In this document: one piece after another, positions 3,179 through 22,339 of the stretch | Layout of the letters: every line of letters begins with the position of its first letter | How positions within the stretch are numbered: the first letter of the stretch is position 1 | From: Ferrovibrio sp. | GTDB lineage: Bacteria; Pseudomonadota; Alphaproteobacteria; Ferrovibrionales; Ferrovibrionaceae | Assembly (NCBI RefSeq): GCF_041906005.1 | Contig: NZ_JAYRJY010000003.1 | Location: forward strand, 3,724-67,723 | Length of the DNA stretch: 64,000 nt | Reading direction: 5' to 3' | Notes under the pieces: model-generated | Told to the model about the DNA's origin: nothing | Database searches by the model: none | The model's input: the letters and a program-made list of their open reading frames with translations, nothing else | Made by a program: the position numbers and the translations under genes

Positions 3179-3850
3179 ATGCCGAAACCGATTGCCGCCG
3201 ATATTGCCCGCAGCTTGCAGCAGCGCATCGACGCCGGCGAATGGGCCGATGGGCGCCAGGTACCGCCGGAGCGCGACCTCGCCGCCGATTTCGGCGTAGC
3301 CCGGAACACGATCCGCCGCGCAATGGACATGCTGCGCGATCAGGGAACGATTTCGCGCCATGTCGGGCGCGGCACCTTCGTCGCCAACGGCGCCAAGCAT
3401 TCCCTGAGCGAGATCGTTGCCGGCATGGAAGGGGCGAGCCCCGCCGACATGATGGAACTGCGCCTGCTGCTGGAACCCTTGTCGTCGGCCAATGCCGCGA
3501 TCAATGCCAGCGCGGCACAACTCGCCGGCATCGAGGAAGCGCACCGCGAGGCCAATGCCGCCACCGACATCATGACGTTCGAGCAGTGGGATTCAGCCCT
3601 GCACCACCGCATCTTTGCCTGCTCACGCAACGAATTGCTGCGCGGCATCTATGATCTCCTCCATGTCCTGCGCAATCAATCGCCCTGGTTCGACATGAAG
3701 AAGCGCTCCTTTTCGGAGGAGCGGCGGCAGAATTACTGCCAGCAGCACGACGCGATCGTGACGGCGATCCTCAACCGCGATCCGGAAGCGGCGCGCGCGG
3801 CGACGCTGGCGCATCTGAAGACGGTCGAGGCCAACCTGCTGGGGCGTTAG
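3179..3850 (+). CDS. GntR family regulator (FadR/FCD subfamily)
   Basis: wHTH VPPERDLAADFGVARNTIRRA and GRGTFV; FCD domain with DSALHHRI and QHDAIV. Alternative start at 3140. Confidence 0.92.
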   Translation: MPKPIAADIARSLQQRIDAGEWADGRQVPPERDLAADFGVARNTIRRAMDMLRDQGTISRHVGRGTFVANGAKHSLSEIVAGMEGASPADMMELRLLLEPLSSANAAINASAAQLAGIEEAHREANAATDIMTFEQWDSALHHRIFACSRNELLRGIYDLLHVLRNQSPWFDMKKRSFSEERRQNYCQQHDAIVTAILNRDPEAARAATLAHLKTVEANLLGR

Positions 3851-4905
3851 TGCTTCAACATCGCCTGGCGCCAGACGCGCGGGCTCGTCCCGGCCCAGCG
3901 CGTGAAGGCACGGGTGAAGGCGGAAAGCTCGGAATAGCCGAGCAATAAGGCAATCTCGCTCAAGGGCAGCTGGCTTTGCTGCAGATAATGCCGGGCGAGG
4001 TCGAAACGGGTCACTTCGACGGCCTCGCGATAGCCCATGCCGGCATCGGCCAGGGCACGCTGGATCGCATGCGGGCTGAGACGCAGCGTGTGAGCCACCT
4101 GTTCCAGCGTCGGCGCCCCTTCGGCCAGACGCAGCCGCACGGCACCGCGCACCCGGTCTATGAGCGAATCCGGCCGATCGCGGGACCCCAGCGATTCCAG
4201 GCAGGTCTGCATCATGGTGAGGAGTTTGAGGTCGCGGCCCGGCATCGGCCGGCTGAGCAGATCGGCATCGAAGATGATGGCATTGGTGGCGCAGCCGAAG
4301 AAAACCGGCGCGCCGAACGCCATCTCATGCTGCCGCCAATCGGGGGGCCGTGGATGCTCGAACTGGATTTCCAGCGGCGACCAATGCTTGCCGCAACATT
4401 CGCGGATGATGTTGGTGAATTGCCCCAAAGAGAGCTCGGCATCCTGGCGCCGGGCCACAATCGAGGGGGAAATAATCTGATATTCCAGGCGCATGCGCTT
4501 GTCCCCATCGCGCCGCAGCGACATCACGGACGAGCTTTGCTGGAAACGGAACAAGCCGACCAGATTTTCGAGAGCGCTGCCGAGGGTGGGCGAGGACAAG
4601 GAGGCATAGCCCCACATCCCCAGATCGCGCGGGGAGAATTGCTGGCCGAACCAGAGGCCGAAATTGTCACGGCCGGTCTGGCGGGCGGCCTCCTCGAACA
4701 GGGCGCAATAGGCGGCAAGGCGCAATTGCAGGGTCGGGGCCGCGGTCATTTCCGGCGCCAGGCCGCAATTGCCGAAGATGGAATCCACATCCCCGCCCTG
4801 GGCGTCGATGAATTCCACCAGACCGGCGGCGGCGGCGGAGAGCACGACCGGTGCCTTGTCGGCACTGCCCGCGTCTGAATTCGCCCGTCCGCCCAATTGG
4901 ATCAT
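3847..4905 (-). CDS. AraC family activator 1 (long ligand-binding domain, possibly QhpR-like)
   Basis: C-terminal EIALLLGYSELSAFTRAFTRWAGTSP AraC signature; divergent from the dehydratase operon. Confidence 0.9.
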   Translation of the reverse strand: MIQLGGRANSDAGSADKAPVVLSAAAAGLVEFIDAQGGDVDSIFGNCGLAPEMTAAPTLQLRLAAYCALFEEAARQTGRDNFGLWFGQQFSPRDLGMWGYASLSSPTLGSALENLVGLFRFQQSSSVMSLRRDGDKRMRLEYQIISPSIVARRQDAELSLGQFTNIIRECCGKHWSPLEIQFEHPRPPDWRQHEMAFGAPVFFGCATNAIIFDADLLSRPMPGRDLKLLTMMQTCLESLGSRDRPDSLIDRVRGAVRLRLAEGAPTLEQVAHTLRLSPHAIQRALADAGMGYREAVEVTRFDLARHYLQQSQLPLSEIALLLGYSELSAFTRAFTRWAGTSPRVWRQAMLKH

Positions 4906-4948
4906 GAAACCGTCCCTGATGGCTGGCTGTCATCGATAAGGGTCAGGA

Positions 4949-4977
4949 ATGATGGCATGGTGCCAGCCATGCTGCAA
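4949..4977 (-). promoter_or_regulatory. Putative sigma70 promoter of AraC1
   Basis: Minus strand TTGCAG-N17-CATCAT; the block ATGATGGCATGGYGC is also found upstream of AraC2. Confidence 0.4.
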
Positions 4978-5003
4978 GGCAGCAAGGCTCTCCTGAAGAA
5001 GAC

Positions 5004-5059
5004 GCTGTCAAACATGGTGGGTTTTCGGTCAAGCCGGCGGCGGGCCGTGATATTAGCCT
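5004..5059 (+). promoter_or_regulatory. AraC-type tandem site plus -10 element for the dehydratase operon
   Basis: TGTCAA 5006-5011, GGTCAA 5027-5032 (21-bp period) and TAGCCT 5054-5059; same architecture at 9712 and 15925. Confidence 0.7.
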
Positions 5060-5110
5060 GTCCGTAAAATCACAGAAATCTGCCCAAGGAACAGGCTGGG
5101 AGAATAAAGC

Positions 5111-7390
5111 ATGAGCGAGCGCCCGCAACAGAACGCCAATCGCTGGCGGCGCTTTGCCGATTGGGACGAACGGCCTCTGCGCCTCGATCGTTTCGCGGTG
5201 GAGGACCCCGAGAACGGCTTTGCCGCCTTCAAGGGTGCCAAGGACCCCAAGCCCGGCCTGGCCATTGCAGAGGGCAGGGTGGTGTCGATGGACGGCATCC
5301 CGGCGGCCGAATTCGACATGATCGATCATTTCGTCGCTCATCATCATCTCGATCTCGACCTCGCCCCGCAAGCGATGGCGATCCCCTCTGCCGACATCGC
5401 CCGCATGCTGGTCGACATTGCCGTGCCACGGACCGAACTGGCGCGCCTTGCCCATGGCCTCACCCCCGCTAAGCTTGCCGAGGTGGTGGCACAGCTCTCG
5501 GCGATCGAGCTCGCTTTCGCTTTCTCGAAGATGCGCACCCGCAAGACGCCCGGCAATCAGGGCCATGTCACCAATGCCAAGGACGACCCGCTGCAATTGG
5601 CGGCGGATGCCGCGACGGCGGTCGCTTTCGGCTTCGACGAGGTCGAGACGACCATGCGCGTCGCGAGGAATGCCTGGTCGAACGCTCTGGCCTGCGCCGT
5701 GGGTGCCTCGGTCGGCCGTTGGGGCACGCTTTTTCAATGTTCCAGCGAAGAATCCGAGGAATTGCAGATCGGCATGGCGGGCTTCACATCCTATGCCGAG
5801 ACGGTTTCCGTCTATGGGACGGAGCGCGCTTTTACCGACGGCGACGACACGCCCTGGTCGAAAGCGTTCCTGGCCGCTGCCTATGCCAGCCGCGGCATCA
5901 AGATGCGCTGCACGTCAGGGGCCGCATCCGAACTGCTGATGGGATTCCATGAATCGAAGTCCCTCCTTTATCTGGAAGCCCGCTGCCTGTGCCTGCAGCG
6001 TGCCATGGGCGTGCAGGGGACGCAGAATGGCGGCATCGATGGGGCCCCCCTGGCCTCGACCATGCCGGGCGGTGTCCGGGAGCTGATGGCGGAAAATCTC
6101 ATCGCTGTCTGGCTCGACCTCGAATGCGCCACCGGCAATGATGCGCGGCATTCGGAATCGGAAATCCGGGTGGGAGCCAAGATCCTGCCCTTCCTCATCG
6201 CCGGGTCCGATTTCATCTGCTCCGGCATGGGGTCGATCCTCGCCTATGACAATTCCTTCAACCCCTCCTCCTTCAATGGCGAGGAGATGGAGGATTTTCT
6301 GGTGCTGCAGCGCGATTTCGAGGCCGATGGCGGGCTGACCTCGGTCGGCGAATCCCGCGCCCTGGAACTGCGCCGGCGGGCGACCGATGCGCTGGGCGCG
6401 GTGTTCGAGGAGTTGGGCCTTGGCACGCCGAGCGCTGCAATGAAGCGCAGCGTCGTTGTGGCCTCCGGCTCCAACGAGACCGAGAGCTATCTGCCGCGCG
6501 ACGTCACCCTCATCAGCGAGAAAATCAAGGCGCGCGGGATCAACGTGCTCGACGTCATCAAGGCGCTGGCCGTGCGCGGCTTCCGGGAGGAAGCACAGAA
6601 TCTCCTCAATGTCGTGCGCCTGCGGGTGTCGGGCGATTATCTGCAGACGGCGGCGGTGGTACGCCAGGGACATGTCATCAGCGCCGTCAACGATCCCAAC
6701 GACTATGGCGGACCCGGCACCGGCTATCGGCTGAGCGGCCAGCGCCGCCAGGAACTGGCCGCTATCCGCGATGTGCTGACGCGCGAGGAGGTCTTGCGCA
6801 CAGAAGCCACCTTCGCCGGTGCCGAGAACCGGCGCATCCGCTACCGAGCCTTGGGCGATGCGGCAACGAGCGGGCCGAAAAACGAGATCGTCATTGGCGT
6901 CAGCCCAGCCTTCGGTCTGAAGCTCTTCCGGACATTGGCCGGCCATCCGCTTTCCGCCGTGCTGCGGGCGATGAGCGAGGGTATTGCCGAAAAGGGCGGC
7001 GTTGCCCGCATCGTGCGCATGCGACACACGGCCGATACCTCGTTCCTGGGGCTGAGTGCAGCGCGCCTCGCCGGCTCCGGTATCGGCATCGGCATCCAGG
7101 CCAAGGGGACCGCCGTCATCCACCAGGCCGACCGCCTGCCCCATCACAATCTGGAACTGTTCTCCAACGCGCCGATCACGTCGCTTGCGCATTACCGAAA
7201 GCTTGGGCAGAACGCGACCGCTTACGCCAAGGGCGAATTGCCGGAGCCGGTCGTGGTGCCGACCGAGGGCGAGGCCATGGGAGCCCGCTTCCATGCCCAG
7301 GTGGCCCTTATCTATGCGATCGAGACCTCGCTCGCGCAGGACGGCGCCAAGCCTGAGGAAATCGAGATCGCCTTCCTGGAGGTTCAATAA
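5111..7390 (+). CDS. Adenosylcobalamin-dependent diol/glycerol dehydratase, fused large (alpha) and medium (beta) subunits
   Basis: Alpha motifs QGHVTN, FDEVETT, YAETVSVYGTE, FTDGDDTPWSK and SAVNDPNDYGGPGTGYRL; from about residue 575, beta motifs EIVIGVSPAFG, GSGIGIGIQAKGTAVIHQ and NLELFSNAP. Confidence 0.95.
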   Translation: MSERPQQNANRWRRFADWDERPLRLDRFAVEDPENGFAAFKGAKDPKPGLAIAEGRVVSMDGIPAAEFDMIDHFVAHHHLDLDLAPQAMAIPSADIARMLVDIAVPRTELARLAHGLTPAKLAEVVAQLSAIELAFAFSKMRTRKTPGNQGHVTNAKDDPLQLAADAATAVAFGFDEVETTMRVARNAWSNALACAVGASVGRWGTLFQCSSEESEELQIGMAGFTSYAETVSVYGTERAFTDGDDTPWSKAFLAAAYASRGIKMRCTSGAASELLMGFHESKSLLYLEARCLCLQRAMGVQGTQNGGIDGAPLASTMPGGVRELMAENLIAVWLDLECATGNDARHSESEIRVGAKILPFLIAGSDFICSGMGSILAYDNSFNPSSFNGEEMEDFLVLQRDFEADGGLTSVGESRALELRRRATDALGAVFEELGLGTPSAAMKRSVVVASGSNETESYLPRDVTLISEKIKARGINVLDVIKALAVRGFREEAQNLLNVVRLRVSGDYLQTAAVVRQGHVISAVNDPNDYGGPGTGYRLSGQRRQELAAIRDVLTREEVLRTEATFAGAENRRIRYRALGDAATSGPKNEIVIGVSPAFGLKLFRTLAGHPLSAVLRAMSEGIAEKGGVARIVRMRHTADTSFLGLSAARLAGSGIGIGIQAKGTAVIHQADRLPHHNLELFSNAPITSLAHYRKLGQNATAYAKGELPEPVVVPTEGEAMGARFHAQVALIYAIETSLAQDGAKPEEIEIAFLEVQ

Positions 7391-7815
7391 TGGCCCGGAT
7401 CGACGATGTTGCCGATTATCCACTCGCCGAGAACCGGCCCGACCTGGTCAAAACCGCGCGCGGCAAGGCGCTGGAAGAACTCACGCTCGATGCCGTCATG
7501 GCCGGCGAGGTGACATTGGAAGATCTGCGCATCACCCCCCAGGCACTCAAGGACCAGGCGCGCGTGGCAACCCTGGCCGGCCGGCCGACCCTGGGGCGCA
7601 ATTTCGAGCGCGCCGCCGAACTGGTGGCAGTGCCGCAGGAGTTCCTGCTGCAGGTCTACGAACTGCTGCGTCCGGGCCGCGCCAAGACAAAGGCCGATCT
7701 GCTGGATGCCGCCAAGATCTTGCGTACGATCTATAAGGCGGAAAAGATGGCCACCTTTGTTGAGGAAGCAGCGGAAGTTTACGAAAAACGTGGCCTCTTT
7801 ACCTTCCGGTTTTGA
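7390..7815 (+). CDS. pduE: Diol/glycerol dehydratase small (gamma) subunit
   Basis: DYPLAE, DLRITPQAL, NFERAAELVAVP, YELLRPGR and EAAEVY motifs; 141 aa, translationally coupled to the fusion gene. Confidence 0.92.
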   Translation: MARIDDVADYPLAENRPDLVKTARGKALEELTLDAVMAGEVTLEDLRITPQALKDQARVATLAGRPTLGRNFERAAELVAVPQEFLLQVYELLRPGRAKTKADLLDAAKILRTIYKAEKMATFVEEAAEVYEKRGLFTFRF

Positions 7816-7915
7816 ACGACGCTGATGGATATGCGGCCCCCTCTCCGCGTGATATCCTTCTTACGTGCATACTGAACACACATGCACGCATTGGATACAT
7901 GGATGGAGGCATTCG

Positions 7916-8158
7916 ATGATAATATATGAGTTGATTGCCGCGGTTCCTGCGGGACCGGGGCATCCTGGGCACACCGTTCTCGCATTGAAACAAGGATCGC
8001 CTTTCATGGCGGCAAATGTAGGCGACTATTTCGATGTTGCCGATCCAGCCGGTACGCCCAACTATAGAATTACCGCAATCCGTCACGACATCTTCAAAGG
8101 ACCCGGCGGCCCGGATACCCATGTGTGCCGCACCTCGCTTGCACTGGGCATTGTCTAG
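7916..8158 (+). CDS. Small hypothetical protein (80 aa)
   Basis: Strong SD GGAGG 6 nt before ATG 7916; fills an otherwise empty gap; no family recognised. Confidence 0.55.
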   Translation: MIIYELIAAVPAGPGHPGHTVLALKQGSPFMAANVGDYFDVADPAGTPNYRITAIRHDIFKGPGGPDTHVCRTSLALGIV

Positions 8159-8182
8159 TCTTCTCAATTAGCCAAAAGCGAC

Positions 8183-8232
8183 TGCTCAGCATGATCTACA
8201 TTGCCGATCGCCCAAAATGATCATGCTGAGCA
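8183..8232. repeat. Perfect 14-bp inverted repeat
   Basis: TGCTCAGCATGATC 8183-8196 and GATCATGCTGAGCA 8219-8232, 22-nt spacer. Confidence 0.85.
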
Positions 8233-8254
8233 CCGCTCTACTACGAGCAAAGTC

Positions 8255-8950
8255 ATGAACTGGAAGACGCGACACCGATCCTTCTATTACCAAGGCGCGC
8301 CGGAGCCCGACGATCTTGCCTTCAAGCCCGCCGAGACGGCGCTCCTGGTCATCGATGTGCAGAACACCTATCTGGAACGGCCGGAGCGAGCCACGCTCGA
8401 TGCTGCCGGCAAGGCGCATTTCGACGCCTGGACGCCGTTTCACGAACGCATGAACGGCATGGTCATCCCGCGCACGGCGGAACTGCTGCGCCTGGCGCGC
8501 AAGCACGGTATCGAATGCCTGTTTGCGCGCATCGCCTGCCGGACCAAGGATGGCCGCGACCGGTCGTTGAGCCAGAAGATGCCCGGCTGGAACAATCTGC
8601 TGCTGCCCAAGAACGAGCATGCGTCGCAACTGGTGCCGCAACTGGAGCCCCAAGGCGACGAGATTGTCGTCACCAAGACAACCGACAGCGCGCTCACGGG
8701 CACCAACCTGCGCCTAATCCTGCACAATCTGGGCATCAGAAACGTCATCTGCGCCGGCATCTTCACCGACCAATGCGTCTCCTCGACCGTGCGGAGCCTC
8801 GCCGACGAAAGCTTCCAGGTCGTGGTGCTGGAGGATTGCTGCGCCGCCGGCTCAGATACGCTGCACGAACAGGAACTGGCGATCATCAACATGATCTACT
8901 GCCATGTCATGACCGCCGACGAACTCAAAGCGATGATGAAACTCACATGA
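8255..8950 (+). CDS. Isochorismatase-family cysteine hydrolase (amidase)
   Basis: Asp-Lys-Cys triad in VIDVQN, VVTKTT and GIFTDQCV; ATG 8255 preferred over the TTG at 8201. Confidence 0.9.
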   Translation: MNWKTRHRSFYYQGAPEPDDLAFKPAETALLVIDVQNTYLERPERATLDAAGKAHFDAWTPFHERMNGMVIPRTAELLRLARKHGIECLFARIACRTKDGRDRSLSQKMPGWNNLLLPKNEHASQLVPQLEPQGDEIVVTKTTDSALTGTNLRLILHNLGIRNVICAGIFTDQCVSSTVRSLADESFQVVVLEDCCAAGSDTLHEQELAIINMIYCHVMTADELKAMMKLT

Positions 8951-9675
8951 AACGCATCCTGATCATCGTTCCGGAACTGGTGGCCCCGCCGGGTATTCTC
9001 GGCCAGGCGCTGATCGCACAGGGTGTCCATTATGACGCCGTCTTCCCGGTGGCCCGCTTTGCCACCTATTCCCCGATGGACTATCCCGGCTTGCCACAGG
9101 GTCCCGCCAATTATGCCGGTCTGATCGTGCTGGGCGGGCCGATGAGCGCCAAGGATGAGCATCTCTATCCCTTCCTCACCGAGACCATGGCCCTGATACG
9201 GGCCTTCACAGCGGTGGAACGGCCGGTGCTGGGCGTGTGCCTGGGCGCCCAGATCATCGCCCATGCCTTCGGTGGCGAGATCTATCGCATGGGAAAACTG
9301 GAATCCGGTTTCTATCAATTGGCGCTGACGCCGGAAGGACGCAGCGACCCGCTGTTCCGGGACTTTGCCGAGCCGGTAACGGTCTTTGAAAACCATTACG
9401 AAGCGACACGCAACACACCGGGCGCTGTACCGCTGATGACCGGCGGCGCCTGTCCTATCCAGGCTTTCCGCGTCGGCGCCAAGACTTATGGCGTGCAATT
9501 CCATGTCGAGGTCACGATCGACATCGTGCGCGATTGGATCCGGATGTTCGGCGCGGATTTCTGCCGGGATGAGCCAAGATTGCTGACCGATCTCGACCGC
9601 CAGTTCGAGATCCATTTCGGCGACTATGTTCGCGCCTGCGATACGCTCACGCGGAATTGGTTGGCGTTAAGCTGA
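8947..9675 (+). CDS. Class I glutamine amidotransferase-like hydrolase
   Basis: LIVLGGP, GVCLGAQ (Cys) and QFHVE (His-Glu); ATGA-coupled to the upstream gene. The track's start at 8515 is an upstream extension. Confidence 0.9.
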   Translation: MKRILIIVPELVAPPGILGQALIAQGVHYDAVFPVARFATYSPMDYPGLPQGPANYAGLIVLGGPMSAKDEHLYPFLTETMALIRAFTAVERPVLGVCLGAQIIAHAFGGEIYRMGKLESGFYQLALTPEGRSDPLFRDFAEPVTVFENHYEATRNTPGAVPLMTGGACPIQAFRVGAKTYGVQFHVEVTIDIVRDWIRMFGADFCRDEPRLLTDLDRQFEIHFGDYVRACDTLTRNWLALS

Positions 9676-9711: not shown

Positions 9712-9767
9712 GCTGTCAAGATTAACAGCCTAAATGTCAAGACCGGGTGGTAGGGGCGCCCTATCGT
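9712..9767 (+). promoter_or_regulatory. AraC-type tandem site plus -10 element for the ABC/SDR operon
   Basis: TGTCAA 9714-9719, TGTCAA 9735-9740 and TATCGT 9762-9767. Confidence 0.7.
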
Positions 9768-9928: not shown

Positions 9929-11092
9929 ATGAGCAGCTTCAAGCAGTCACGTCGCAACTTCATGCAGAATTCGGCCCTGATGGCCGCGGCCTTTGCCACC
10001 AGCGGCGTAGCGGGCCTGCGCTCGGCCTATGCCGATCGCTCCAAGGAACTCAATATCCTGTGTTGGGAAGGCTATAACTCGGCGCAAGTCTTGGATCCAT
10101 TCCGCGAATCCAACGGCGCCACGGTGAAGGCGGAATCGCTCACCAACGACCCCACCATGATCAACCGCCTGCGTGCCGGCGAAACCAATGTCTGGGACCT
10201 GATCAACGTCAACAATCCCTGGGCACGCAAGATCATGTTTCCGGAGAAGCTGATCCAGCCGCTCGACCGGGCCAAAATGGAACCCTATTTCGAGAAGATG
10301 GCCCCCGCCTTCAAGCCGCCCTATGCGTGGGCCATGGACGAAAGTGGCAGCCAGCTCATCGGCATGGCACAGCGCTACGGTCCCTACAGCTTCGTCGTCA
10401 ACACCGACAAAGTGAGCCGCGCCACCGCCGAGGATCAGGGCTGGGATCTGTGGAACGACGCGGGCAATGCCGGCAAGTACGGCGTGCTTGAATCCGATGA
10501 TTGGAACGTCTTCAACCTGTGCTGCATCGCCGGCTTCGATCCCTTCAAGGAGCATACGCCGGAGGAAATCGCCAAGTTCACGGAAACCGCCAAGCGCGTC
10601 TTCAAGGGCGCCAAGGTGGTGGGCGACATCGCGACCATGAACCAGGCCCTTGTCTCGGGCGAGATCGATTTCCACATGACCGGCGGTACCTACTCCGCCT
10701 CGCCAGCCCGCGCCGATGGCGCCGGCAATATCCGCGCCATCACGCCGAAAAAGGGGCCGCTCGCTGGCGGCAAGGGCGGCATTTCCTGGATCGAGATCAC
10801 CTCGGTGGTCAACAATCCAGACGTCTCGCCGCTTGCCGTGCAGTTCCTGGAATATGTCCAAGACCCGAAAGTCGCCCATACGGTCGCTTTCGCCGAGGGC
10901 ACGTTCAACCCGGTGGCCCAGATGGGCAATCCGGATTGCTTCAGTCTCTTCACCAAGGAAGAACTCGATGCGATCCAGTATGACAGCCTGGAAGAGGAAA
11001 TGGCGCGTTCGGTCGAATACGACATTGTGCCGGACTACGACAAGCTGCTCGACATCATGACCGCTGCCAAGCGCGAAGCTTCGGGCGGCTGA
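9929..11092 (+). CDS. PotD/PotF-family ABC substrate-binding protein with Tat signal
   Basis: SRRNFM twin-arginine motif, AYA cleavage site, LNILCWEGY and YGPYSFVVNTD; SD GGAGAGGG before ATG 9929. Confidence 0.85.
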   Translation: MSSFKQSRRNFMQNSALMAAAFATSGVAGLRSAYADRSKELNILCWEGYNSAQVLDPFRESNGATVKAESLTNDPTMINRLRAGETNVWDLINVNNPWARKIMFPEKLIQPLDRAKMEPYFEKMAPAFKPPYAWAMDESGSQLIGMAQRYGPYSFVVNTDKVSRATAEDQGWDLWNDAGNAGKYGVLESDDWNVFNLCCIAGFDPFKEHTPEEIAKFTETAKRVFKGAKVVGDIATMNQALVSGEIDFHMTGGTYSASPARADGAGNIRAITPKKGPLAGGKGGISWIEITSVVNNPDVSPLAVQFLEYVQDPKVAHTVAFAEGTFNPVAQMGNPDCFSLFTKEELDAIQYDSLEEEMARSVEYDIVPDYDKLLDIMTAAKREASGG

Positions 11093-14764: not shown

Positions 14765-15832
14765 TCAGTGCCCCTGCTTCCGATAGGCGCGCGGGCTGAC
14801 ACCCGTCCAGCGGGTGAAGGCGCGGGTGAAGGCGGAGAGCTCCGAATAGCCGAGCAGCAGGGCGATCTCGGTCAGCGGTAGCTGGCGCTGATCGAGATAC
14901 ATCTGGGCAAGGCTCTGCCGTGTCGTTTCGACCGCATCCTTATAGGTGAGCCCCTGTTCAGCGAGTTCCCGCTGCACCACAGCGGCCGGCACGCGCAGGG
15001 AATGAGCGATCTGATCGAGGCTGGGGTAGCCGCCGGGCAGGCTCACGCGGATCGCCGTCTTGACCCGGTCGACCATACCGTCGGTCCCCTGCCGATGCGA
15101 ACCCAGAGATTCGAGGCAGGTCTGCATCATGGTCAGAAGCTGCAAATCGCGGCCCGGCATCGACCGCTCGAGGAGTTCGGGACGGAACAGCAGCGCATTG
15201 GTCGGCTGGCTGAAATAGACCGGCGCATCGAAGGCCGCCTCGTGCTCCTTCCAGAATTCCGGGCGCGGATGCTCGAAATGCACCTCGACCGGCGTCCATT
15301 TCGACCCGCAGCAATCGCGGATGACATTGGCGAACATGCCGAGCGAGAGTTCCGCATCCTGCCGGCGCTCGACGATTTCCGAGGAAAAGATCTGGTATTC
15401 GAGCCGCATCAGCCCGTCGGTGCCCTTCACCAGCTGCATCCCTGAGGATTCCTGGTGGTAGTGGAAAAGCCGCACCAGATTTTCGAGAGCCGCCCCCAGA
15501 TTTGGGGATGAGATCGCTGCATAGCCCCACATGCCGAGGTCGCGCGGCTGGAATTGCTGGCCGAAATGCAGACCGAAATTGCCCGGGCTGAACTTGTCGC
15601 CCTGGATCTGCTTGGCCGCTTGCTCGAAGAGGCGGCAATAAGAAGCGAGTTTTAGTTTCAGGGTGGGCGATCCGGCCATATCCGGTGCAATGCCGGAATT
15701 GCCGAAGATCGAATCCACATCACCGCGCTGACGCTCGATGAAGTCCACCAAGCCGGTGGCAGCCGCGGCAAGGACGATCGGTGCCCCGCTTTCGCGCGTC
15801 TCGGTCTTGTGATCCAGCAAAGCGGCAGCCAT
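14765..15832 (-). CDS. AraC family activator 2, paralog of 3847-4905
   Basis: Same C-terminal signature and shared GQQF-PRDLGMWGYA and RRQDAELSLG blocks; start moved to ATG 15832. Confidence 0.9.
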   Translation of the reverse strand: MAAALLDHKTETRESGAPIVLAAAATGLVDFIERQRGDVDSIFGNSGIAPDMAGSPTLKLKLASYCRLFEQAAKQIQGDKFSPGNFGLHFGQQFQPRDLGMWGYAAISSPNLGAALENLVRLFHYHQESSGMQLVKGTDGLMRLEYQIFSSEIVERRQDAELSLGMFANVIRDCCGSKWTPVEVHFEHPRPEFWKEHEAAFDAPVYFSQPTNALLFRPELLERSMPGRDLQLLTMMQTCLESLGSHRQGTDGMVDRVKTAIRVSLPGGYPSLDQIAHSLRVPAAVVQRELAEQGLTYKDAVETTRQSLAQMYLDQRQLPLTEIALLLGYSELSAFTRAFTRWTGVSPRAYRKQGH

Positions 15833-15907: not shown

Positions 15908-15924
15908 GGGTGCAAAGCTGATCA

Positions 15925-15981
15925 GCTGTCAAGATCGCCCCGTCACGGGTCAAGCGAGGCTTGGCGCCCGCACCCTAGCCT
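15925..15981 (+). promoter_or_regulatory. AraC-type tandem site plus -10 element for the microcompartment operon
   Basis: TGTCAA 15927-15932, GGTCAA 15948-15953 and TAGCCT 15976-15981. Confidence 0.7.
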
Positions 15982-16085
15982 GCACTTGGATGGAAATGCG
16001 CCTGCCGCCGTCAAGCGGCATGCCCGGACTTTAGTTAACGATCCTGGGTGAAGAGCCTGACCACCATCTGGGAGCAGGGAAATAA

Positions 16086-17084
16086 ATGAGCGGCATGCTC
16101 ACGACAGAACAATTGTTGCGCGCGATCGATGAGCTGGCTGCTGCCGCCTTGCCCCGCTGGGGGTTGGCTGGCGCCGAGCTGAAGCTGATCAATCATTCGG
16201 AAAATTGGACCTATCGCGTGACGCCCCGGGGCACCGCGCGTCCGGTCATCCTGCGCGTGCATCGGGAAGGCTATCACAGCGTCGACGGCATCCGCAGCGA
16301 GCTTGCCTGGATGCGCGCCCTGCAATCGCAAGCGGGTGTGAAGACGCCACAGGCCATTCCCGGCACCGACGGCGCCGATATCCAGACCGTGGCGCATCCG
16401 GCCCTCGCCACGCCGCGCAATTGCGTGCTGTTCGAATTCATCGACGGGACCGAGCCGCCGCAGGACAATCTCATTCCGCCTTTCCGTCAATTGGGCGAGG
16501 TAACGGCGCGCTGCCACAATCACAGCGAAACCTGGACGCGCCCCCCCTATTTCGAGCGCCTTTCCTGGGACTTTGAACATTCCCTGGGGAAGACCGCCAA
16601 TTGGGGTGCCTGGCAGGACGGGCCGGATTGCACGCCGGACCGCGCCCGGCTGTTGCAGCGCGCGGTCGATCTGATGGAGAAGCGGCTGACGGCTTTCGGA
16701 CAGGCCCGGAACCGTTACGGCCTCATCCATGCCGATTTCCGCCTCGCCAACCTGCTTGTTCACAATGGCGATGTGCGCGTCATCGATTTCGACGATTGCG
16801 GCCTCGGCTGGTTTCTCTATGACGCAGCAAGCGCGGTGAGTTTCTTCGAGGACCGCGCCGATGTGCCGGAACTGATGGAAGCCTGGAAGGAAGGCTATCG
16901 CCGCCAGCGCGCGCTGCCGAAGACGGACGATGACGAATTGTGGACCTTCATCCTGCTGCGTCGCATGACGCTCTTTGCCTGGATGGGGAGCCATGCCGAA
17001 ACGGATCTCGCCCGCACCGAGGGCCCCGGTTACAGCACCGGCACCTGCGAACTCGCTGAACGTTATCTGAGCCAATACAGCTGA
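16086..17084 (+). CDS. APH/choline-kinase-fold phosphotransferase, aminopropanol kinase-like
   Basis: SENWTY, ILRVHR, HADFRLANLL (HxDxxxxN) and VIDFDD; microcompartment context. Confidence 0.8.
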   Translation: MSGMLTTEQLLRAIDELAAAALPRWGLAGAELKLINHSENWTYRVTPRGTARPVILRVHREGYHSVDGIRSELAWMRALQSQAGVKTPQAIPGTDGADIQTVAHPALATPRNCVLFEFIDGTEPPQDNLIPPFRQLGEVTARCHNHSETWTRPPYFERLSWDFEHSLGKTANWGAWQDGPDCTPDRARLLQRAVDLMEKRLTAFGQARNRYGLIHADFRLANLLVHNGDVRVIDFDDCGLGWFLYDAASAVSFFEDRADVPELMEAWKEGYRRQRALPKTDDDELWTFILLRRMTLFAWMGSHAETDLARTEGPGYSTGTCELAERYLSQYS

Positions 17085-17108
17085 ACCCCGACGGGTCAGG
17101 AGTTACCG

Positions 17109-18398
17109 ATGGTCGATTACCCAGAGAGTCCCGAGAAGCGCGAGTTCATCGCCAAGTCGAAGCAATTCTGGAATCCAGGCAAGACCCAGGCTTGGCAGGA
17201 TATGGGCGTCGATCTGGTGATCGATCGGCGTGAGGGCTACCTGCTCTGGGACATGGATGGGCGGCGTCTTATTGATCTCCATCTCAACGGTGGCACCTAC
17301 AATATCGGTCATCGGCATCCGGAACTGATCGAGGTGCTCAATCGCGGCATGCAGCGCTTCGACATGGGCAATCACCACTTCCCAAATATGGGCCGCACGG
17401 CCTTGGCCGAGCGGCTGGCGCGCATCTGCGGCGGCGACATGCACTATACCATGTATGCCTCAGGCGGCGCCGAAGCCATCGACATCGCCCTCAAGACCGC
17501 GCGCCACGCCACACAGCGGCGCAAGATCGTCTCGATCATCAATGCCTATCATGGCCATACCGGCCTCGCCGTCGCCGCCGGCGCTGATCGCTTCAAGAAG
17601 ATCTTTCTGTCCGACCAGCCGGAAGATTTCGTGCATGTGCCTTTCAACGATCTCAACGCGATGGAAGATGCGCTGAAAGGCAAAGACGTCGCCTGCCTCA
17701 TCATGGAGACGATTCCCGCGACCTACGGCTTTCCGATGCCGCTGCCCGGCTACCTCACGGAAGTGAAGAAGTTGTGCGAGCGTTATGGCGCACTCTATGT
17801 CGCGGATGAAGTGCAGACGGGCCTGATGCGCTGCGGCGAAATGTGGGGCTATCAGCGCTATGGCATCCAGCCGGACATCATGGTGACCGGCAAGGGCATT
17901 TCCGGCGGTATGTATCCGATCGCCTGCGTCGTGGTGCGCGAGCCCTATGCCGGCTGGCTGAAACAGGACGGTTTTGCCCATATGTCGACCATGGGCGGCG
18001 CCGAGCTCGGCTGCCTGGTTGCCATGAAGACGCTAGAAATCCTCGAACGTCCGATGGTGAAGCCGATGGTCAACTATATCTCCGAGACGTTCCGCAACGG
18101 TCTTCACGAGATCATGCGGCTTTATCCCAGCTTCTTCGTGGGCTTGCGCCAATGTGGCGTCGTCATGGGGCTGGAATTCGATTTCCCCGAGGGCGCCAAA
18201 CCGGTGATGAAGCATCTCTATGAAAACGGCGTCTGGGCGATCTTCTCGACGCTCGATCCGCGCGTGCTGCAATTCAAGCCCGGTGTGTTGATGACCGCCG
18301 ATCTCTGCGCCGAGGTGCTGGAGCGGGTCGAACGCAGCATCGGTCTCGCCTATGCCGAATGCATGGGCAAAGGTCGCAGCGCCCATCGGGCCGCCTGA
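17109..18398 (+). CDS. Class III PLP-dependent enzyme, probably an amino-alcohol O-phosphate phospho-lyase (or aminotransferase)
   Basis: SGGAEA, YHGHT, ADEVQTG and PLP lysine in VTGKGISGG; adjacent to the kinase. Confidence 0.8.
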   Translation: MVDYPESPEKREFIAKSKQFWNPGKTQAWQDMGVDLVIDRREGYLLWDMDGRRLIDLHLNGGTYNIGHRHPELIEVLNRGMQRFDMGNHHFPNMGRTALAERLARICGGDMHYTMYASGGAEAIDIALKTARHATQRRKIVSIINAYHGHTGLAVAAGADRFKKIFLSDQPEDFVHVPFNDLNAMEDALKGKDVACLIMETIPATYGFPMPLPGYLTEVKKLCERYGALYVADEVQTGLMRCGEMWGYQRYGIQPDIMVTGKGISGGMYPIACVVVREPYAGWLKQDGFAHMSTMGGAELGCLVAMKTLEILERPMVKPMVNYISETFRNGLHEIMRLYPSFFVGLRQCGVVMGLEFDFPEGAKPVMKHLYENGVWAIFSTLDPRVLQFKPGVLMTADLCAEVLERVERSIGLAYAECMGKGRSAHRAA

Positions 18399-18411
18399 GG
18401 AGCGCCGCGAT

Positions 18412-20007
18412 ATGACTGCCATCATTGAAGAAATCCTCGCCGGCGACAAACGCGCCACCGGTACCGCCGACCTCATGCTGCAAATGGCGGAATGGGCCGC
18501 GGCGGCCTTTGCGCGCTTCGACCGAGCAAAGGTCGAAAAGATCGCCCGCGCCGCCGCCGATGTCGCCTATGCCCATGCCGGGGAACTCGCCGAAGCGGCG
18601 GTCAAGGAAACCGGCTTCGGTGTCGCCGCCCATAAGAAGATCAAGAACGAACTGACCTCACGCGGTCTTTTCGAGCTCTATTCGAAAGAGGATTTTTGTT
18701 CGGCCAAGATCGATCCTGCGCTGAAGATGGTCGAACTGCCCAAGCCGGCCGGCGTCATTTTCGCCCTGACGCCCTCGACCAACCCGGTCTGCAGCGTCTA
18801 TTACAAGGTGCTGATGGCGCTCTTCACCCGCAACGCCATCATCCTGTCGCCGCACCCGATGGCAAAGGGCTGTTCGGTGAAGGCTGCCAAACTGATGGCC
18901 GAAGCCGCAGAACAGGCCGGTGCACCCACCGGCATCATCCAGATCATCGAGCAGCCAAATCTGCCGCTGATTGACTATGTGATGAAAAGCCCGCGCGTCG
19001 GCGTCATCCTGGCGACCGGCGGCACACCCATGGTGCGCTCGGCCTATAGTTCCGGCAATCCGGCGATCGGCGTCGGTCCCGGCAATGCGCCGGTCCTGGT
19101 TGACGACAGCGCCGACCTCAATGAAGTGGCCAAGCGTATCGTCATGTCGAAGGCATTCGACAATTCGATCCTCTGTACGAATGAAAGCGTCGTCGTTGCG
19201 ATCGATAGCATCGCCGACCGGCTGCTGCAATCCTTGAAATCGGCGAGCGCCTATATCGCGAAGCCCGAGGAAGTCGTGGCCTTGCGCGACTTGCTGTTCG
19301 GCCTGGGCTCGTTCAACACGGCCGTCCTGGGCAAGTCTGCGGTCGAAATCGGCGCGCAGGCTGGCATTCGCCTACCTTCGAATACGCAGATCATTGTCGC
19401 CGAAATCGACCGCGTCGGGATCGACGAGCCGCTTTCCAAGGAAAAGCTCTGCCCTGTGCTGGGCTTCTTGCGAGTGCCGCATGCCGATGCCGGCATTACC
19501 CAGGCCCGCGCGCTCATCCGCCTGTCAGGTGCCGGTCATTCCGCTGCCATCCACAGCCGCCATGCACCGACCATCCTGAAATATGGCGCGGCGGTGAAGG
19601 CTTTGCGCGTCGCCGTCAACGCGCCATGCAGCCTGGGTGCCGCCGGCTATGGCACGCATCTGGCACCGGCCTTCACCATCGGCACCGGCTTCTTCGGGTC
19701 CTCCTCGATCGGCGAGAATGTGGGACCGCAACACCTCATCAACTGGACACGGATCGCCTATAACGACGATCCCAAGGAAGTGTTCGGCGATTTCAGCGGA
19801 CTCGACGCCAATGCCGGCGGCCCCGCTCTGGCACTGGGTCTGGAGGCGCCGATTTCACTGGGTCGCCTGCAGGAAGGGGCCGATGCGGCGCAGGATCCCC
19901 TGCCCTTGCCTCTTTCCAACAGTGGATCGACCGACGAGGTCGCCATCTTGCGCGAAGAAATCCGGCGCATGGTCCTTGAAGAACTGCGCGGGGCGCTCCG
20001 GTCATGA
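18412..20007 (+). CDS. CoA-acylating aldehyde dehydrogenase (EutE/PduP family) with C-terminal encapsulation peptide
   Basis: TPSTNP, ATGG, AYSSGNPAIGVGPGN, FDNSILC (catalytic Cys) and EKLCPVL; tail DEVAILREEIRRMVLEELRG; ATG 18412 with SD GAGGAG. Confidence 0.9.
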   Translation: MTAIIEEILAGDKRATGTADLMLQMAEWAAAAFARFDRAKVEKIARAAADVAYAHAGELAEAAVKETGFGVAAHKKIKNELTSRGLFELYSKEDFCSAKIDPALKMVELPKPAGVIFALTPSTNPVCSVYYKVLMALFTRNAIILSPHPMAKGCSVKAAKLMAEAAEQAGAPTGIIQIIEQPNLPLIDYVMKSPRVGVILATGGTPMVRSAYSSGNPAIGVGPGNAPVLVDDSADLNEVAKRIVMSKAFDNSILCTNESVVVAIDSIADRLLQSLKSASAYIAKPEEVVALRDLLFGLGSFNTAVLGKSAVEIGAQAGIRLPSNTQIIVAEIDRVGIDEPLSKEKLCPVLGFLRVPHADAGITQARALIRLSGAGHSAAIHSRHAPTILKYGAAVKALRVAVNAPCSLGAAGYGTHLAPAFTIGTGFFGSSSIGENVGPQHLINWTRIAYNDDPKEVFGDFSGLDANAGGPALALGLEAPISLGRLQEGADAAQDPLPLPLSNSGSTDEVAILREEIRRMVLEELRGALRS

Positions 20008-20025
20008 GAAGGCAGCACTGATATC

Positions 20026-20625
20026 ATGGCCGATCTGCGCTCCTTCATCTTCATCGACCAGCTGCAGCCGCAGACGCTCTGCTATATGGCGAGCGGCATG
20101 CGCGGGCGCTTGCCACGCACCCATATGGCCGCCCAGATCATCGAAGTGGCCCCCGGGCTCGATATCGAGGCGCTGACCGATACCGCCCTCAAGCATGCCG
20201 AGGTGAGCGGTGGCATGCTGGTGGTGGAACGCCAGTTCGGCTATCTCGAATTCCATTCCCGTTCGACGGCCGCCGTCAAGTCGGCCGCCGAGGCTGTGCT
20301 GGATGAGCTCGAGGCACGAACCGAACAGGCGATGAAACCGCAGATTCTCGCTTCCAAGATCGTGACCCGGATCGATAATGGCCACGCTTTCCTCATCAAC
20401 CGCAACAAATCGGGTTCGATGATCCTGCCCGGCGAATCGCTCTTCGTCCTCGAGATGCAGCCCGCCTCCTATGCCATCCTGGCCACCAATGAGGCGGAAA
20501 AAACGGCGGATATCAAAGTGATCGACTATCGCATGTTCGGCGCCACCGGCCGGGTCTACCTCTCCGGTGAAGAATCCAATGTGCGCATGGGCGCTGAAGC
20601 GGCCTTGGCCGCCTTGCAAGGATGA
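20026..20625 (+). CDS. BMC-T shell protein (permuted tandem, double-stacking type)
   Basis: [31 protein letters not shown] and [10 protein letters not shown]. Confidence 0.88.
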
Positions 20626-21044
20626 GCCAGATGGATAAGAGCCTCATCCGCAACCTGATCCGAGAAGTCATCGCCGAGGAAGTGAAGGCGATGAAGTCGG
20701 GTAAGTCGCCCGCCGCCACACCTTCCTCGGTGCGCATTGCTGGGGATGCCGATCTCGCGACTTTTGCCAAGGACGTCTTGCGCCTCGCTGACGATCCGCA
20801 GGTGCGCACTGCCATTCTGGCCGGGCGGCATCCGTTCCATCTGGCAAGCTCTGCTGCGCCAACGACGGCTGCGCCGTCCGGGCAAAGTCATCGCGTCGAC
20901 AAGGGCGTCGTTACGGAAGGCGCCATCGCCAAGCTCGGCAAGAATGTCTCGCGCCTGCTGCTGGGGCCGGGCGTCAGTATCACCCCCTTGGCCCGCGACA
21001 AGGCCAAGGCGCGCAACATCAGCGTCGAAAGGATCGGGCAATGA
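20622..21044 (+). CDS. BMC-associated hypothetical protein with N-terminal encapsulation peptide
   Basis: N-terminal DKSLIRNLIREVIAEEV amphipathic helix; C-terminal VVTEGAI...ITPLARDKAKARNISV module seen in BMC loci; ATGA-coupled on both sides. Confidence 0.75.
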   Translation: MSQMDKSLIRNLIREVIAEEVKAMKSGKSPAATPSSVRIAGDADLATFAKDVLRLADDPQVRTAILAGRHPFHLASSAAPTTAAPSGQSHRVDKGVVTEGAIAKLGKNVSRLLLGPGVSITPLARDKAKARNISVERIGQ

Positions 21045-21298
21045 TTCGCGGTCGGGTCGTGGGCCGATATTGGGCCACCAAGAAAATCGAGCACATCCCC
21101 TCGGGGGCGTTCCTGGAAGTGGAAAGCCCCGGCGGCGGGCGCATGATCGCCTTTGACGTGCTGGGCTGCGGCGAGGGCGAGGATGTCCTCATCGTCACCG
21201 GTTCCACCGCCGCCTCCTGGCTGGGCGGCGGCAAGATACCCATAGACGCACTCATCATCGGCTCGCTCGACGAGACGTCGAAATCCAAATCGAAATAG
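21041..21298 (+). CDS. BMC-P pentameric vertex protein (EutN/CcmL family)
   Basis: [22 protein letters not shown] and PIDALIIG. Confidence 0.92.
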
Positions 21299-21327
21299 CC
21301 AACACTGTTGAAAGCAAGGAGAGAACC

Positions 21328-21609
21328 ATGTCGAACGCTATCGGAATGATCGAGACCAAGGGTTTCGTCGCGGCCCTGGCCGCGGCCGATGCCATGGTCA
21401 AAGCCGCCAATGTCACGGTGGTCGGCCGCGAAGAAGTGGGTGACGGCCTCGTTGCCGTCATCATTAATGGCGATGTCGGTGCCGTGAAGGCAGCGACTGA
21501 AGCCGGTGCCGAAGCAGCGAGCAGCGTCGGTACGCTGGTCTCCGTCCACGTCATCCCGCGCCCGCATCCCGACCTTGGCAAGCATTTCTCGACCGCCAGC
21601 GGGAAGTAA
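21328..21609 (+). CDS. BMC-H hexameric shell protein
   Basis: [29 protein letters not shown] and HVIPRPH; SD AGGAG. Confidence 0.97.
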
Positions 21610-21628
21610 CTGATCGACGCAAGCTTGA

Positions 21629-21661
21629 CCGTCATGCCCCGACTGAGTGCGGGCATGACGG
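21629..21661 (+). repeat. REP-like GC-rich hairpin between BMC-H and the last BMC-T gene
   Basis: CCGTCATGCCC / GGGCATGACGG, 11-bp stem with no U-tract. Confidence 0.75.
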
Positions 21662-21703
21662 CAGATGTGTTGACGTTGCTCTAACGCCTTCCGGAATCAA
21701 TTT

Positions 21704-22339
21704 ATGACCGAGCTTCGCGTCTATCTGCTGGTGAAAGACCTGGCCCGCCAGTTCGCGGCATATATGTCGACGCCCACGCGGGCGCGCGGCTATCCGCCGA
21801 TGCAGGGCGAGCATAGCTTGATCATCGAGGTGGCGCCGGCTTTGGCCATTCACCGGATCTGCGATCTGGCACTAAAGACCGCGCCGGACATGGAGCCGGG
21901 CTTGCTCTATACCGAGCGGCAATACGGCATCCTGGAGCTGCATGCGGCGGATCTCGCGCATCTCAACTTCGCCGGCGAGGCGATCCTCAAAGGCATCGGC
22001 CACAAGCCCGAAGACCAGTTGAAACCCCGGACACTCTACGCCGACATCATTGACGATGTGTCGGACCAGCATGCGATCATCCTCAATCGCACGCGCGAGG
22101 CATCGATGCTGCTGCCGGGCAAATCTCTGCTGCTCTATGAGTTGGAGCCGGCGCTCTTTGCCTCGGTCGCTGCCAATGAGGCGGAGAAGGTCGCGCCCGG
22201 CATCACCCTCGTTGACGTGCAGATGATCGGCGCCAGCGGGAGATTGTTCCTTTCCGGTACACGCAAGGAATGCGAACGCGCCCGCGATCGCATCGATGAG
22301 GTGCTGGGTGCCGTGATCGGGCGGTCGGGGAAGGCGTAG
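21704..22339 (+). CDS. BMC-T shell protein (double-stacking type)
   Basis: RARGYPP, IIEVAPA, ERQYG, ANEAEK and GASGRLFLSG. Confidence 0.88.
   Translation: MTELRVYLLVKDLARQFAAYMSTPTRARGYPPMQGEHSLIIEVAPALAIHRICDLALKTAPDMEPGLLYTERQYGILELHAADLAHLNFAGEAILKGIGHKPEDQLKPRTLYADIIDDVSDQHAIILNRTREASMLLPGKSLLLYELEPALFASVAANEAEKVAPGITLVDVQMIGASGRLFLSGTRKECERARDRIDEVLGAVIGRSGKA

Follow-up and report, generated by a model that had tools for sequence, protein, structure and literature searches.

In this study, we analysed a stretch of 64,000 nucleotides from an assembly labelled Ferrovibrio sp. (NCBI RefSeq GCF_041906005.1, contig NZ_JAYRJY010000003.1; the whole stretch is hereafter called the window). Within it, positions 3847-22339 carry an operon for a B12-dependent diol dehydratase, an operon for an ATP-binding cassette (ABC) importer and an operon for a bacterial microcompartment (BMC), accompanied by two AraC-type regulators. 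Sequence comparisons gave strong evidence that the dehydratase is under the same genetic control as the amino-alcohol genes, contrary to the standard BMC catalogue, and they argue for its membership in the pathway, because the three operons share an operator that is unique in the genome, this operator is conserved among relatives, the linkage persists through rearrangement of the genes, and an aspartate in the dehydratase pocket is specific to the clade. As an overall explanation, we give an even chance to the locus being a single regulon under AraC control that serves to degrade small vicinal amino alcohols and diols, built around a microcompartment of the RMM2/AAUM2 type, with the dehydratase as a feeder branch.

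Gene identities were taken from Pfam and NCBIfam scans of the open reading frames (ORFs) of the window, and the limits of the operons were inferred solely from gaps and gene orientation; a promoter and terminator scan of the window performed no better than shuffles. In these scans, the three operons, the two AraC genes and all the other genes named in the original prediction, which had been made from the letters of the sequence and a list of its ORFs, were each recovered in place. The features of the locus are the following:

3847-4905, minus strand: AraC1 (Arabinose_bd and HTH_18 domains; Pfam), divergent from the dehydratase operon
5005-5033, plus strand: operator O1, CTGTCAA-N16-GTCAAG, 78 nt ahead of the dehydratase start codon (pattern search)
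5111-7390, plus strand: B12 diol/glycerol dehydratase, fused large and medium subunits (DhLM), 759 aa (Pfam/NCBIfam)
7390-7815, plus strand: dehydratase small subunit of the short type, 141 aa (NF011975, 139 aa, matched end to end)
7816-8254, no strand: spacer of about 440 nt with a perfect 14-nt inverted repeat at 8183-8232 (sequence inspection)
8255-8950, plus strand: isochorismatase-family cysteine amidohydrolase, 249-aa ORF, triad Asp52/Lys159/Cys192 (Pfam/NCBIfam)
8947-9675, plus strand: stand-alone class-I glutamine-amidotransferase-like hydrolase (GATase), Cys98/His186/Glu188 (Pfam/NCBIfam)
9713-9741, plus strand: operator O2, ahead of the operon for the ABC importer and the short-chain dehydrogenase/reductase (SDR) (pattern search)
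9929-11092, plus strand: PotD/PotF-type substrate-binding protein (SBP) (Pfam/NCBIfam)
11199-12266, plus strand: ABC ATPase (Pfam/NCBIfam)
12280-13134 and 13138-13956, plus strand: two ABC permeases (Pfam/NCBIfam)
13979-14761, plus strand: SDR, ortholog of the Mycobacterium smegmatis (S)-1-amino-2-propanol dehydrogenase (matches to 3PK0, 6CI8 and 6CI9)
14765-15832, minus strand: AraC2, paralog of AraC1, divergent from the kinase/shell operon (start set from the 355-aa protein of Dongia sp. L009)
15926-15954, plus strand: operator O3, ahead of the operon for the kinase, the pyridoxal phosphate (PLP) enzyme, the aldehyde dehydrogenase (ALDH) and the shell (pattern search)
16086-17084, plus strand: APH-family amino-alcohol kinase (APK), ortholog of the M. 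smegmatis aminopropanol kinase (6EF6 match)
17109-18398, plus strand: class-III aminotransferase-like PLP enzyme (AT), presumed amino-alcohol-phosphate phospho-lyase (Pfam/NCBIfam)
18352-20007, plus strand: CoA-acylating ALDH with a C-terminal linker and amphipathic helix (EutE/AdhE-type models); the real start is probably Met21 at 18412
20026-20625, plus strand: BMC-Tdp shell protein 1, 40% identical to Tdp2 (Pfam)
20622-21044, plus strand: orf140, a conserved 140-aa protein with an N-terminal encapsulation-peptide-like helix (alignment of relatives)
21041-21298, plus strand: BMC-P vertex protein (EutN_CcmL; Pfam)
21328-21609, plus strand: BMC-H hexamer protein (Pfam; match to MSM0272, 5L38)
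21704-22339, plus strand: BMC-Tdp shell protein 2, Tdp2 (CcmP-like model; match to MSM0271, 5SUH)

The evidence for co-regulation came from the operator. The pattern CTGTCAA-N16-GTCAAG occurred three times in the window, always on the plus strand and each time in the gap before one of the operons; 0.06 matches were expected in the window, and three matches were reached in none of 100 shuffles. The whole 4.09 Mb assembly contained only these three matches, all at the three promoters of the locus, compared with one match for the reversed control pattern (whole-genome statements about the host, here and below, should be read with possible mis-binning of the contig in mind). One of the sites falls in the 254-nt gap that separates the GATase gene from the ABC importer operon. 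At all three promoters the GTCAA half-sites form a direct repeat with a spacing of 22 bp, which is the geometry expected for an activator of the AraC/XylS family.

For comparison with relatives, 80 loci (1.35 Mb) were fetched by alignment of the kinase, and operator matches were scored at no more than one mismatch. Because these loci belong to related genomes and do not form independent samples, all counts on them describe recurrence rather than statistics. Overall, the 80 loci contained 111 operator matches, of which 105 lay within 400 nt upstream of a pathway gene and in the correct orientation (45 ahead of the kinase gene, 25 ahead of the SBP gene, 21 ahead of the class-III enzyme gene, 11 ahead of the ALDH gene and 3 ahead of DhLM). 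The matches fell in 61 of the loci, gammaproteobacterial Arenicellales included. The reversed control pattern gave six matches in the same 80 loci, none of them upstream of a pathway gene. Most of the fetched flanks end inside the dehydratase gene, and the regions upstream of DhLM were fetched separately from 12 Dongiaceae genomes. The operator was found there in 10 of the 12, again at no more than one mismatch, and in 7 of those 12 genomes an AraC1 ortholog stood divergent to DhLM. The claim of the original prediction that one promoter motif precedes all three operons held up in the assembly and across taxa; judged from this distribution, the shared motif is a real operator, conserved across two proteobacterial classes.

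AraC1 and AraC2 share 63% identity over 336 residues, with C-terminal recognition helices that hardly differ. We propose that the AraC proteins bind the operator: both paralogs, with their near-identical DNA-reading helices, would recognise the direct repeat TGTCAA-N16-GTCAAG. The operator would overlap the -35 region at all three promoters, and the three operons would thus switch on together. The two regulators may sense different inducers. Among the 80 loci, an AraC gene adjoined the kinase locus in 44, and three of five genomes without an adjacent AraC gene had an ortholog elsewhere (48-55% identity).

The genes also travel together. In a tblastn matrix of 20 window proteins against the 80 kinase-anchored loci, 49 of which are full-length, the dehydratase was present in 36 loci, the shell in 47 and both in 23 (27, 35 and 19 of the full-length loci, respectively). 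The dehydratase and ABC genes therefore co-occur with the BMC core in relatives, and the lack of such co-occurrence, which the original prediction had named as a reason to reject it, was not observed. The full set of the window, namely dehydratase, hydrolase, ABC importer, AraC and shell, recurred in at least 14 of the 80 loci, representing at least 14 further genomes at species level and including those of Dongia mobilis CGMCC 1.7660 and D. soli, and the locus is thus not unique. Among 23 genomes without a dehydratase at the locus, 11 carried the fused enzyme elsewhere, and in four of these it lay just beyond the fetched flank.

This linkage held through no fewer than five gene orders, whether a shell was present or not. 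The Dongia order is that of the window. A second order was found in Rhodospirillales (L041, L043, L047 and L066), where the dehydratase gene is co-directional with the shell genes and lies directly 3' of them, and further orders were found in Hyphomicrobiales (L048, L061 and L084; L054). In addition there are the shell-less Hyphomicrobium clusters L010, L081, L088 and others, and a plasmid operon of Shinella with a non-orthologous kinase. A megablast of the locus against plasmids returned partial matches only, which pointed to variants in Shinella and Agrobacterium. The operon on the Shinella zoogloeoides plasmid NZ_CP132313 (L007:14531-25583) has no shell genes and encodes a sugar-type ABC system, a fused dehydratase with the pocket aspartate described below, an SDR, a class-III enzyme and a GntR regulator; its phosphotransferase is 23% identical to the window kinase. 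From its gene content, it looks like an analogous pathway with another kinase and another importer.

The architecture of the dehydratase differs from that of the enzymes of propanediol utilisation (PDU) microcompartments. The medium-subunit part of DhLM matches its profile from position 29 of 219 onward, the small subunit is of the 139-aa short type (NF011975), and the PduE model matches it only from profile position 38; N-terminal extensions of the PduD and PduE type are thus lacking. In PDU systems, these extensions target the dehydratase to the shell. The DDR reactivase (PF08841) was not found above the cut-off in the assembly or in five locus-bearing genomes, in searches in which no positive control matched; for the assembly, the window contig may in addition not belong to the main organism. 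Naturally fused alpha-beta glycerol dehydratases have been described in Mesorhizobium loti and M. smegmatis (Liu et al. 2010, as cited in PMC7674605). As in those enzymes, the product here would be a heterodimer of alpha and gamma, with the beta sequence built into the alpha subunit; by contrast, the portion of text covered names them only as candidates for glycerol conversion, and it contains neither a link to amino-alcohol genes nor a pocket signature.

The active site was compared by aligning DhLM with the fused Klebsiella pneumoniae enzyme 9VI2, and the positions Ser301 and Gln336 are given in K. oxytoca numbering. The catalytic, Ca2+-binding and substrate residues Q142, H144, E171, E222, T223, Q297, D336, S363 and F375 (K. 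pneumoniae numbering) are kept in DhLM and in its relatives. Two pocket residues have changed: S302, at the Ser301 position, is Asp310 in DhLM, and Q337, at the Gln336 position, is Ala345. The original prediction had spoken of a rewired dehydratase, and the pocket is indeed altered. Asp at the Ser301 position (hereafter Asp301) was invariant in all linked dehydratases with a readable site, including the 63%-identical Shinella enzyme. On the other hand, a second fused paralog in the same Dongiaceae genomes, with 45% identity, has Ser at 301 and Ala at 336. This paralog (L092-L095; for example L092:8553-12664 in Dongia sedimenti) stands in the order hemerythrin, dehydratase, SDR and 3-hydroxyisobutyrate-dehydrogenase-like gene, with no amine genes and no reactivase gene in its neighbourhood. 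Because the paralog has Ser301 but shares Ala336, it is Asp301, on the sequences compared, and not Ala336 that marks the amine-linked clade.

In glycerol dehydration, the C3 hydroxyl group of the substrate points toward Ser301 in the inactivation-prone conformation, the substitutions S301A and Q336A lower the rate of inactivation by glycerol (kinact), and alpha-beta fusion slows inactivation (PMC7674605). The aspartate may therefore be the partner of a cationic or N-H group that the substrate bears at C3, as in an amino- or amido-diol, or alternatively the pocket may have been reshaped for work without a reactivase. On the basis of Asp301, B12 chemistry on an amino-diol, as the original prediction proposed, is a reasonable inference.

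The two hydrolases next to the dehydratase have intact catalytic triads. In the 80-locus set, the isochorismatase-family hydrolase stood beside the dehydratase in 22 of 22 loci and the GATase accompanied it in 15 of 16; both co-occur with the dehydratase and not with the importer. The nearest solved relatives of the isochorismatase-family hydrolase were 3OT4/3UAO ('putative isochorismatase'), the 6AZO group ('putative amidases'), 6XIX ('cysteine hydrolase') and RutB; the 3OT4/3UAO, 6AZO-group and 6XIX entries we take to be maleamate amidohydrolase and biuret/triuret hydrolases. The exception to the pairing is the Agrobacterium tumefaciens plasmid pAtCG920 (L008:8439-19268), where the hydrolase follows a PotD-type importer in a cluster with neither dehydratase nor shell. 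This cluster also encodes a kinase, a class-III enzyme, an SDR, a CbiZ-like 'adenosylcobinamide amidohydrolase', a DeoR regulator and a P1 peptidase, and its SBP is also found on pAtC58; its content hints at amide conjugates of aminopropanol as substrates. The pairing and its Agrobacterium exception together suggest that the wider system includes the cleavage of an amide, and that this step goes with the dehydratase branch and not with import. The import of an N-blocked amine followed by its deblocking, as the original prediction had it, is a working hypothesis.

In the gene map of L090, from an uncultured alphaproteobacterium, the module of dehydratase, small subunit and isochorismatase-family hydrolase occurs twice in tandem. 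The spacer at 7816-8254 is unique in the assembly, and the arms of its inverted repeat (8183-8196 and 8219-8232) lie just ahead of the hydrolase start; in Dongia sp. L009, the same flanking genes, for the small subunit and the isochorismatase-family hydrolase, are only 10 nt apart. A 97-aa ORF within the spacer (7865-8158) belongs to no family, is kept in one relative only and is probably not a gene.

The microcompartment core, by contrast with the dehydratase branch, is of a known type. In searches against solved structures, the kinase matched the M. smegmatis (S)-1-amino-2-propanol kinase 6EF6 (E 7e-85), and the SDR matched the M. smegmatis structures 3PK0, 6CI8 and 6CI9 (E 1e-89 to 1e-92; generic FabG reached about 1e-48). 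Of the shell proteins, Tdp2 matched MSM0271 (5SUH) with E 1e-88, compared with 2.5e-37 for MSM0275 (5L39), and BMC-H matched MSM0272 (5L38) with E 3e-41. The RMM-type core of the original prediction was recovered in this way. The nearest solved relative of the class-III PLP enzyme was putrescine aminotransferase (E 1e-54), and its presumed role as an amino-alcohol-phosphate phospho-lyase is suggested by the kinase gene next to it. For the SBP, the PDB held no relative at E<=1e-8. The shell proteins of RMM type (a BMC-H, a BMC-P and two BMC-Tdp), the signature class-III enzyme beside an APH kinase with an SDR in the locus, and an acylating ALDH as the only core metabolosome enzyme all fit RMM2/AAUM2; neither PduL/Pta nor Fe-dependent alcohol dehydrogenase domains were found among the ORFs of the locus by Pfam and NCBIfam. 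On this gene content, the microcompartment core is the catalogued RMM2/AAUM2 type and is not new.

This type was defined as RMM2 (RMM2/PDU2) by the RMM gene set together with diol dehydratase genes, and a bifunctional BMC was raised as a possibility (Axen 2014, PMC4207490). Later, 32 RMM2/AAUM2 loci were listed in varied Proteobacteria (Sutter 2021, PMC8217296, Supplementary Data 2). The locus shares with RMM2/AAUM2 the class-III enzyme, the APH kinase, the SDR, the acylating ALDH, the same four shell proteins, the lack of a phosphotransacylase (PTAC) and an alcohol dehydrogenase (AlcDH) in the locus, the occurrence in Proteobacteria and a nearby diol dehydratase as in the 2014 definition. It differs in that the dehydratase, incidental in the catalogue, is here co-regulated and recurrently linked, in that twin AraC proteins and a defined operator take the place of GntR and a PotD-type ABC importer that of an amino-acid permease, and in the two Cys-amidohydrolases attached to the dehydratase. 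The claim that the complete combination was undescribed can therefore be kept only in part: a core with a diol dehydratase is the RMM2/PDU2 type of 2014 and the RMM2/AAUM2 type of 2021. The interpretation given in the original prediction is supported in part, with a single regulon around a catalogued core and a co-regulated, specialised dehydratase branch. Beyond the literature that we searched are the operator before the pathway operons (61/80) and before the dehydratase (10/12), the linkage in at least five gene orders, and the Asp301 signature as opposed to the Ser paralog.

Two other systems resemble the locus less closely. RMM1/AAUM1, the aminoacetone-utilisation compartment of M. smegmatis mc2 155 (Mallette and Kimber 2017, 2018), has orthologous kinase, SDR, BMC-H and BMC-Tdp proteins and the same presumed chemistry, but it belongs to another phylum and differs in gene order, transporter and regulator, which is GntR there; it lacks a dehydratase and includes alpha/beta hydrolases. 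With the PDU system the locus shares, as far as the genes tell, a B12 diol-family dehydratase with its catalytic residues and an acylating ALDH in a BMC shell, and propionaldehyde as the likely sequestered intermediate. Unlike PDU, it has an alpha-beta fusion without PduD/PduE targeting extensions, Asp301 and Ala336 in the pocket and an RMM-type shell, and no PduL, PduQ, PduO, PduS, PduA/B/J/K-type shell protein or reactivase was seen in the locus.

Encapsulation-peptide-like amphipathic helices on flexible linkers were found only in the ALDH and orf140, which are likely to be the cargo. The C-terminal linker and helix of the ALDH read ...VAILREEIRRMVLEELRGALRS (helix part ...VAILREEIRRMVLEELRGAL), and the N-terminal helix of orf140 reads SLIRNLIREVIAEEVKAM. 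Among the relatives, orf140 accompanied every shell, and its alignment showed variable linkers and an invariant C-terminal motif, ...GVVTE...TPLARD...ER. No Pfam family matched it, and a Foldseek search of the PDB with its AlphaFold model (mean pLDDT 76.7) returned nothing at E<=0.001.

The origin of the contig bears on how these results are assigned to a host. Within the GTDB family of the assembly, the dehydratase was found in none of 39 other species and the shell in none of 36 tested. In the family of D. mobilis (Dongiaceae), the fused dehydratase was present in 53 of 81 sampled genomes, with a best match of 96% amino acid identity, and the best-matching Dongiaceae genome (G115) was collinear with the window at its positions 44-62 kb, at 91% nucleotide identity. 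The tetranucleotide correlation of C12, the contig of the window (82 kb), was 0.988 with C23/C24 and 0.966 with the main contig (3.46 Mb); that of C8 and C10 with the main contig was 0.998. The window is best described as DNA of Dongiaceae (Alphaproteobacteria), either mis-binned or on a transferred element. Because the contig is Dongiaceae-like, a reading of this distribution as horizontal transfer was dropped, mis-binning being equally likely.

The genes on either side of the locus were recorded as well. A GntR/FCD regulator (window 3140-3850) is convergent to AraC1 and ends 4 nt inside the AraC1 end; its position is the same in Dongia sp. L009, with FAA-hydrolase and alpha/beta-hydrolase genes upstream. 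On the 3' side of the shell genes (22438-26913) lie genes for a xylose-isomerase-like TIM barrel, two SDR/epimerases, a DMSP-lyase-like cupin and a MalK-type ABC ATPase, and no copy of the operator was found in this interval.

The pathway that we propose for the regulon follows, for its core, the M. smegmatis scheme said to have been set out by Mallette and Kimber in 2018, in which aminoacetone is reportedly converted through aminopropanol, its O-phosphate and propionaldehyde to propionyl-CoA. The PotD-type ABC system would import the amine, the SDR would interconvert aminoacetone and (S)-1-amino-2-propanol, the APH kinase would phosphorylate the hydroxyl group, and the class-III PLP enzyme would eliminate phosphate and ammonia to yield propionaldehyde. 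The tagged acylating ALDH, inside a shell of BMC-H, BMC-P and the two BMC-Tdp proteins, would then convert the aldehyde to propionyl-CoA. The dehydratase operon would be an integral, co-regulated feeder branch, probably cytosolic, in which the fused B12 enzyme, with no targeting peptide and apparently no reactivase, would turn a vicinal diol into an aldehyde for the same sink. Both the encapsulation of the enzymes and the role of the hydrolases are putative. The invariant Asp301 and the obligatory Cys-amidohydrolase partners suggest that this diol bears a nitrogen-containing substituent on C3, and our best guess for the substrate is 3-amino-1,2-propanediol or an amide of it.

Extended to all Asp301 fused dehydratases, apparently without a reactivase, the last point would mean a new specificity: an amino- or amido-diol dehydratase, served by dedicated Cys-amidohydrolases and feeding the kinase, phospho-lyase and ALDH, so that AAUM would form the last section of an extended amino-polyol route under one conserved AraC operator. 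The substrate would then be 3-amino-1,2-propanediol or a related N-substituted vicinal diol, possibly leading to aminoacetone by reversed regiochemistry. We put this forward tentatively, at clearly less than an even chance. Several observations weigh against the regulon as we propose it. Many loci have a shell without a dehydratase (Arenicellales, Marinobacter) and many a dehydratase without a shell, so neither is obligatory for the other. 3-Aminopropanal, the product from the amino-diol, would have no obvious next enzyme in the cluster except the ALDH. The dehydratase has no encapsulation peptide, and its aldehyde would therefore be made outside the shell. The pocket changes could be an adaptation to work without a reactivase rather than a new specificity, because Ala336 also occurs in the non-amine paralog and the Q336A and S301A variants resist inactivation. 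The absence of the reactivase is itself provisional, given the searches behind it.

A first alternative is that the enzyme is an ordinary dehydratase of 1,2-propanediol (or of glycerol or ethylene glycol), that diol and amino alcohol converge on the ALDH and shell as two entries to propionaldehyde, and that Asp301, Ala336 and the fusion curb suicide inactivation where there is no reactivase. Chemically, R-CH(OH)-CH2OH through the dehydratase and R-CH(OH)-CH2NH2 through kinase and lyase give the same aldehyde; the catalytic and Ca-binding residues are all kept; the effects of S301A, Q336A and of fusion on inactivation (PMC7674605), Ala336 in the non-amine paralog and the reactivase missing from searches without a matching positive control all point the same way, as does the bifunctional BMC of Axen 2014 (PMC4207490). 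It would leave unexplained, however, why position 301 is invariantly Asp, not Ala, and only in the amine-linked clade, and why the dehydratase is strictly coupled to Cys-amidohydrolases, which have no role in plain diol use. Moreover, the cluster has no gene for a diol transporter or facilitator, its importers being of amine type, and the dehydratase lacks an encapsulation peptide. We regard this alternative as possible but would not expect it to prevail. A second alternative is one unbranched route for a 2-amino-1,3-diol, for example serinol, in which each enzyme would act once: the kinase and PLP lyase would yield hydroxyacetone, the SDR 1,2-propanediol, the dehydratase propionaldehyde and the ALDH propionyl-CoA. 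The repeated association of dehydratase, SDR, kinase and class-III enzyme would then be understandable even where a shell is missing (L010, L081, L088) or, as on the Shinella plasmid, where the kinase is non-orthologous. Nevertheless, 1-amino-2-propanol and aminoacetone are the compounds on which the close orthologs of the kinase and SDR were characterised, many RMM loci have no dehydratase, a plain propanediol intermediate would not require Asp301, and the hydrolases would be left over; such a pathway is improbable. Finally, the dehydratase/hydrolase and ABC operons could be neighbours unrelated to the microcompartment, as Sutter 2021 treated PDU enzymes, having found them near only 4 of the 32 RMM2 loci (PMC8217296), and shell and dehydratase are each found without the other. 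By contrast, one genome-unique operator is common to the three promoters, it precedes the dehydratase in 10 of 12 Dongiaceae genomes, and the linkage survives at least five rearranged gene orders. The catalogue gathered genes up to 12 ORFs away from a shell gene; in the window, DhLM is the 13th ORF from the first shell gene, and the undercount of dehydratases probably stems from that limit. Mere proximity was thus already disfavoured, and we consider it very improbable.

The proposed AraC-controlled regulon with a dehydratase branch matters in several respects. RMM/AAUM compartments are among the least understood metabolosome types, and the standard catalogue advises ignoring the adjacent dehydratase. 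The evidence argues for the dehydratase as a member of the pathway, and also for the shell as an optional add-on to a wider amino-alcohol/diol cluster, which is common in Dongiaceae, Hyphomicrobiales and Rhodospirillales, and it provides testable hypotheses for the cultured Dongia mobilis, D. soli and Hyphomicrobium facile. In addition, the locus offers B12 enzymology, and glycerol and diol biocatalysis, a natural fusion of the dehydratase whose pocket is changed and which may do without a reactivase.

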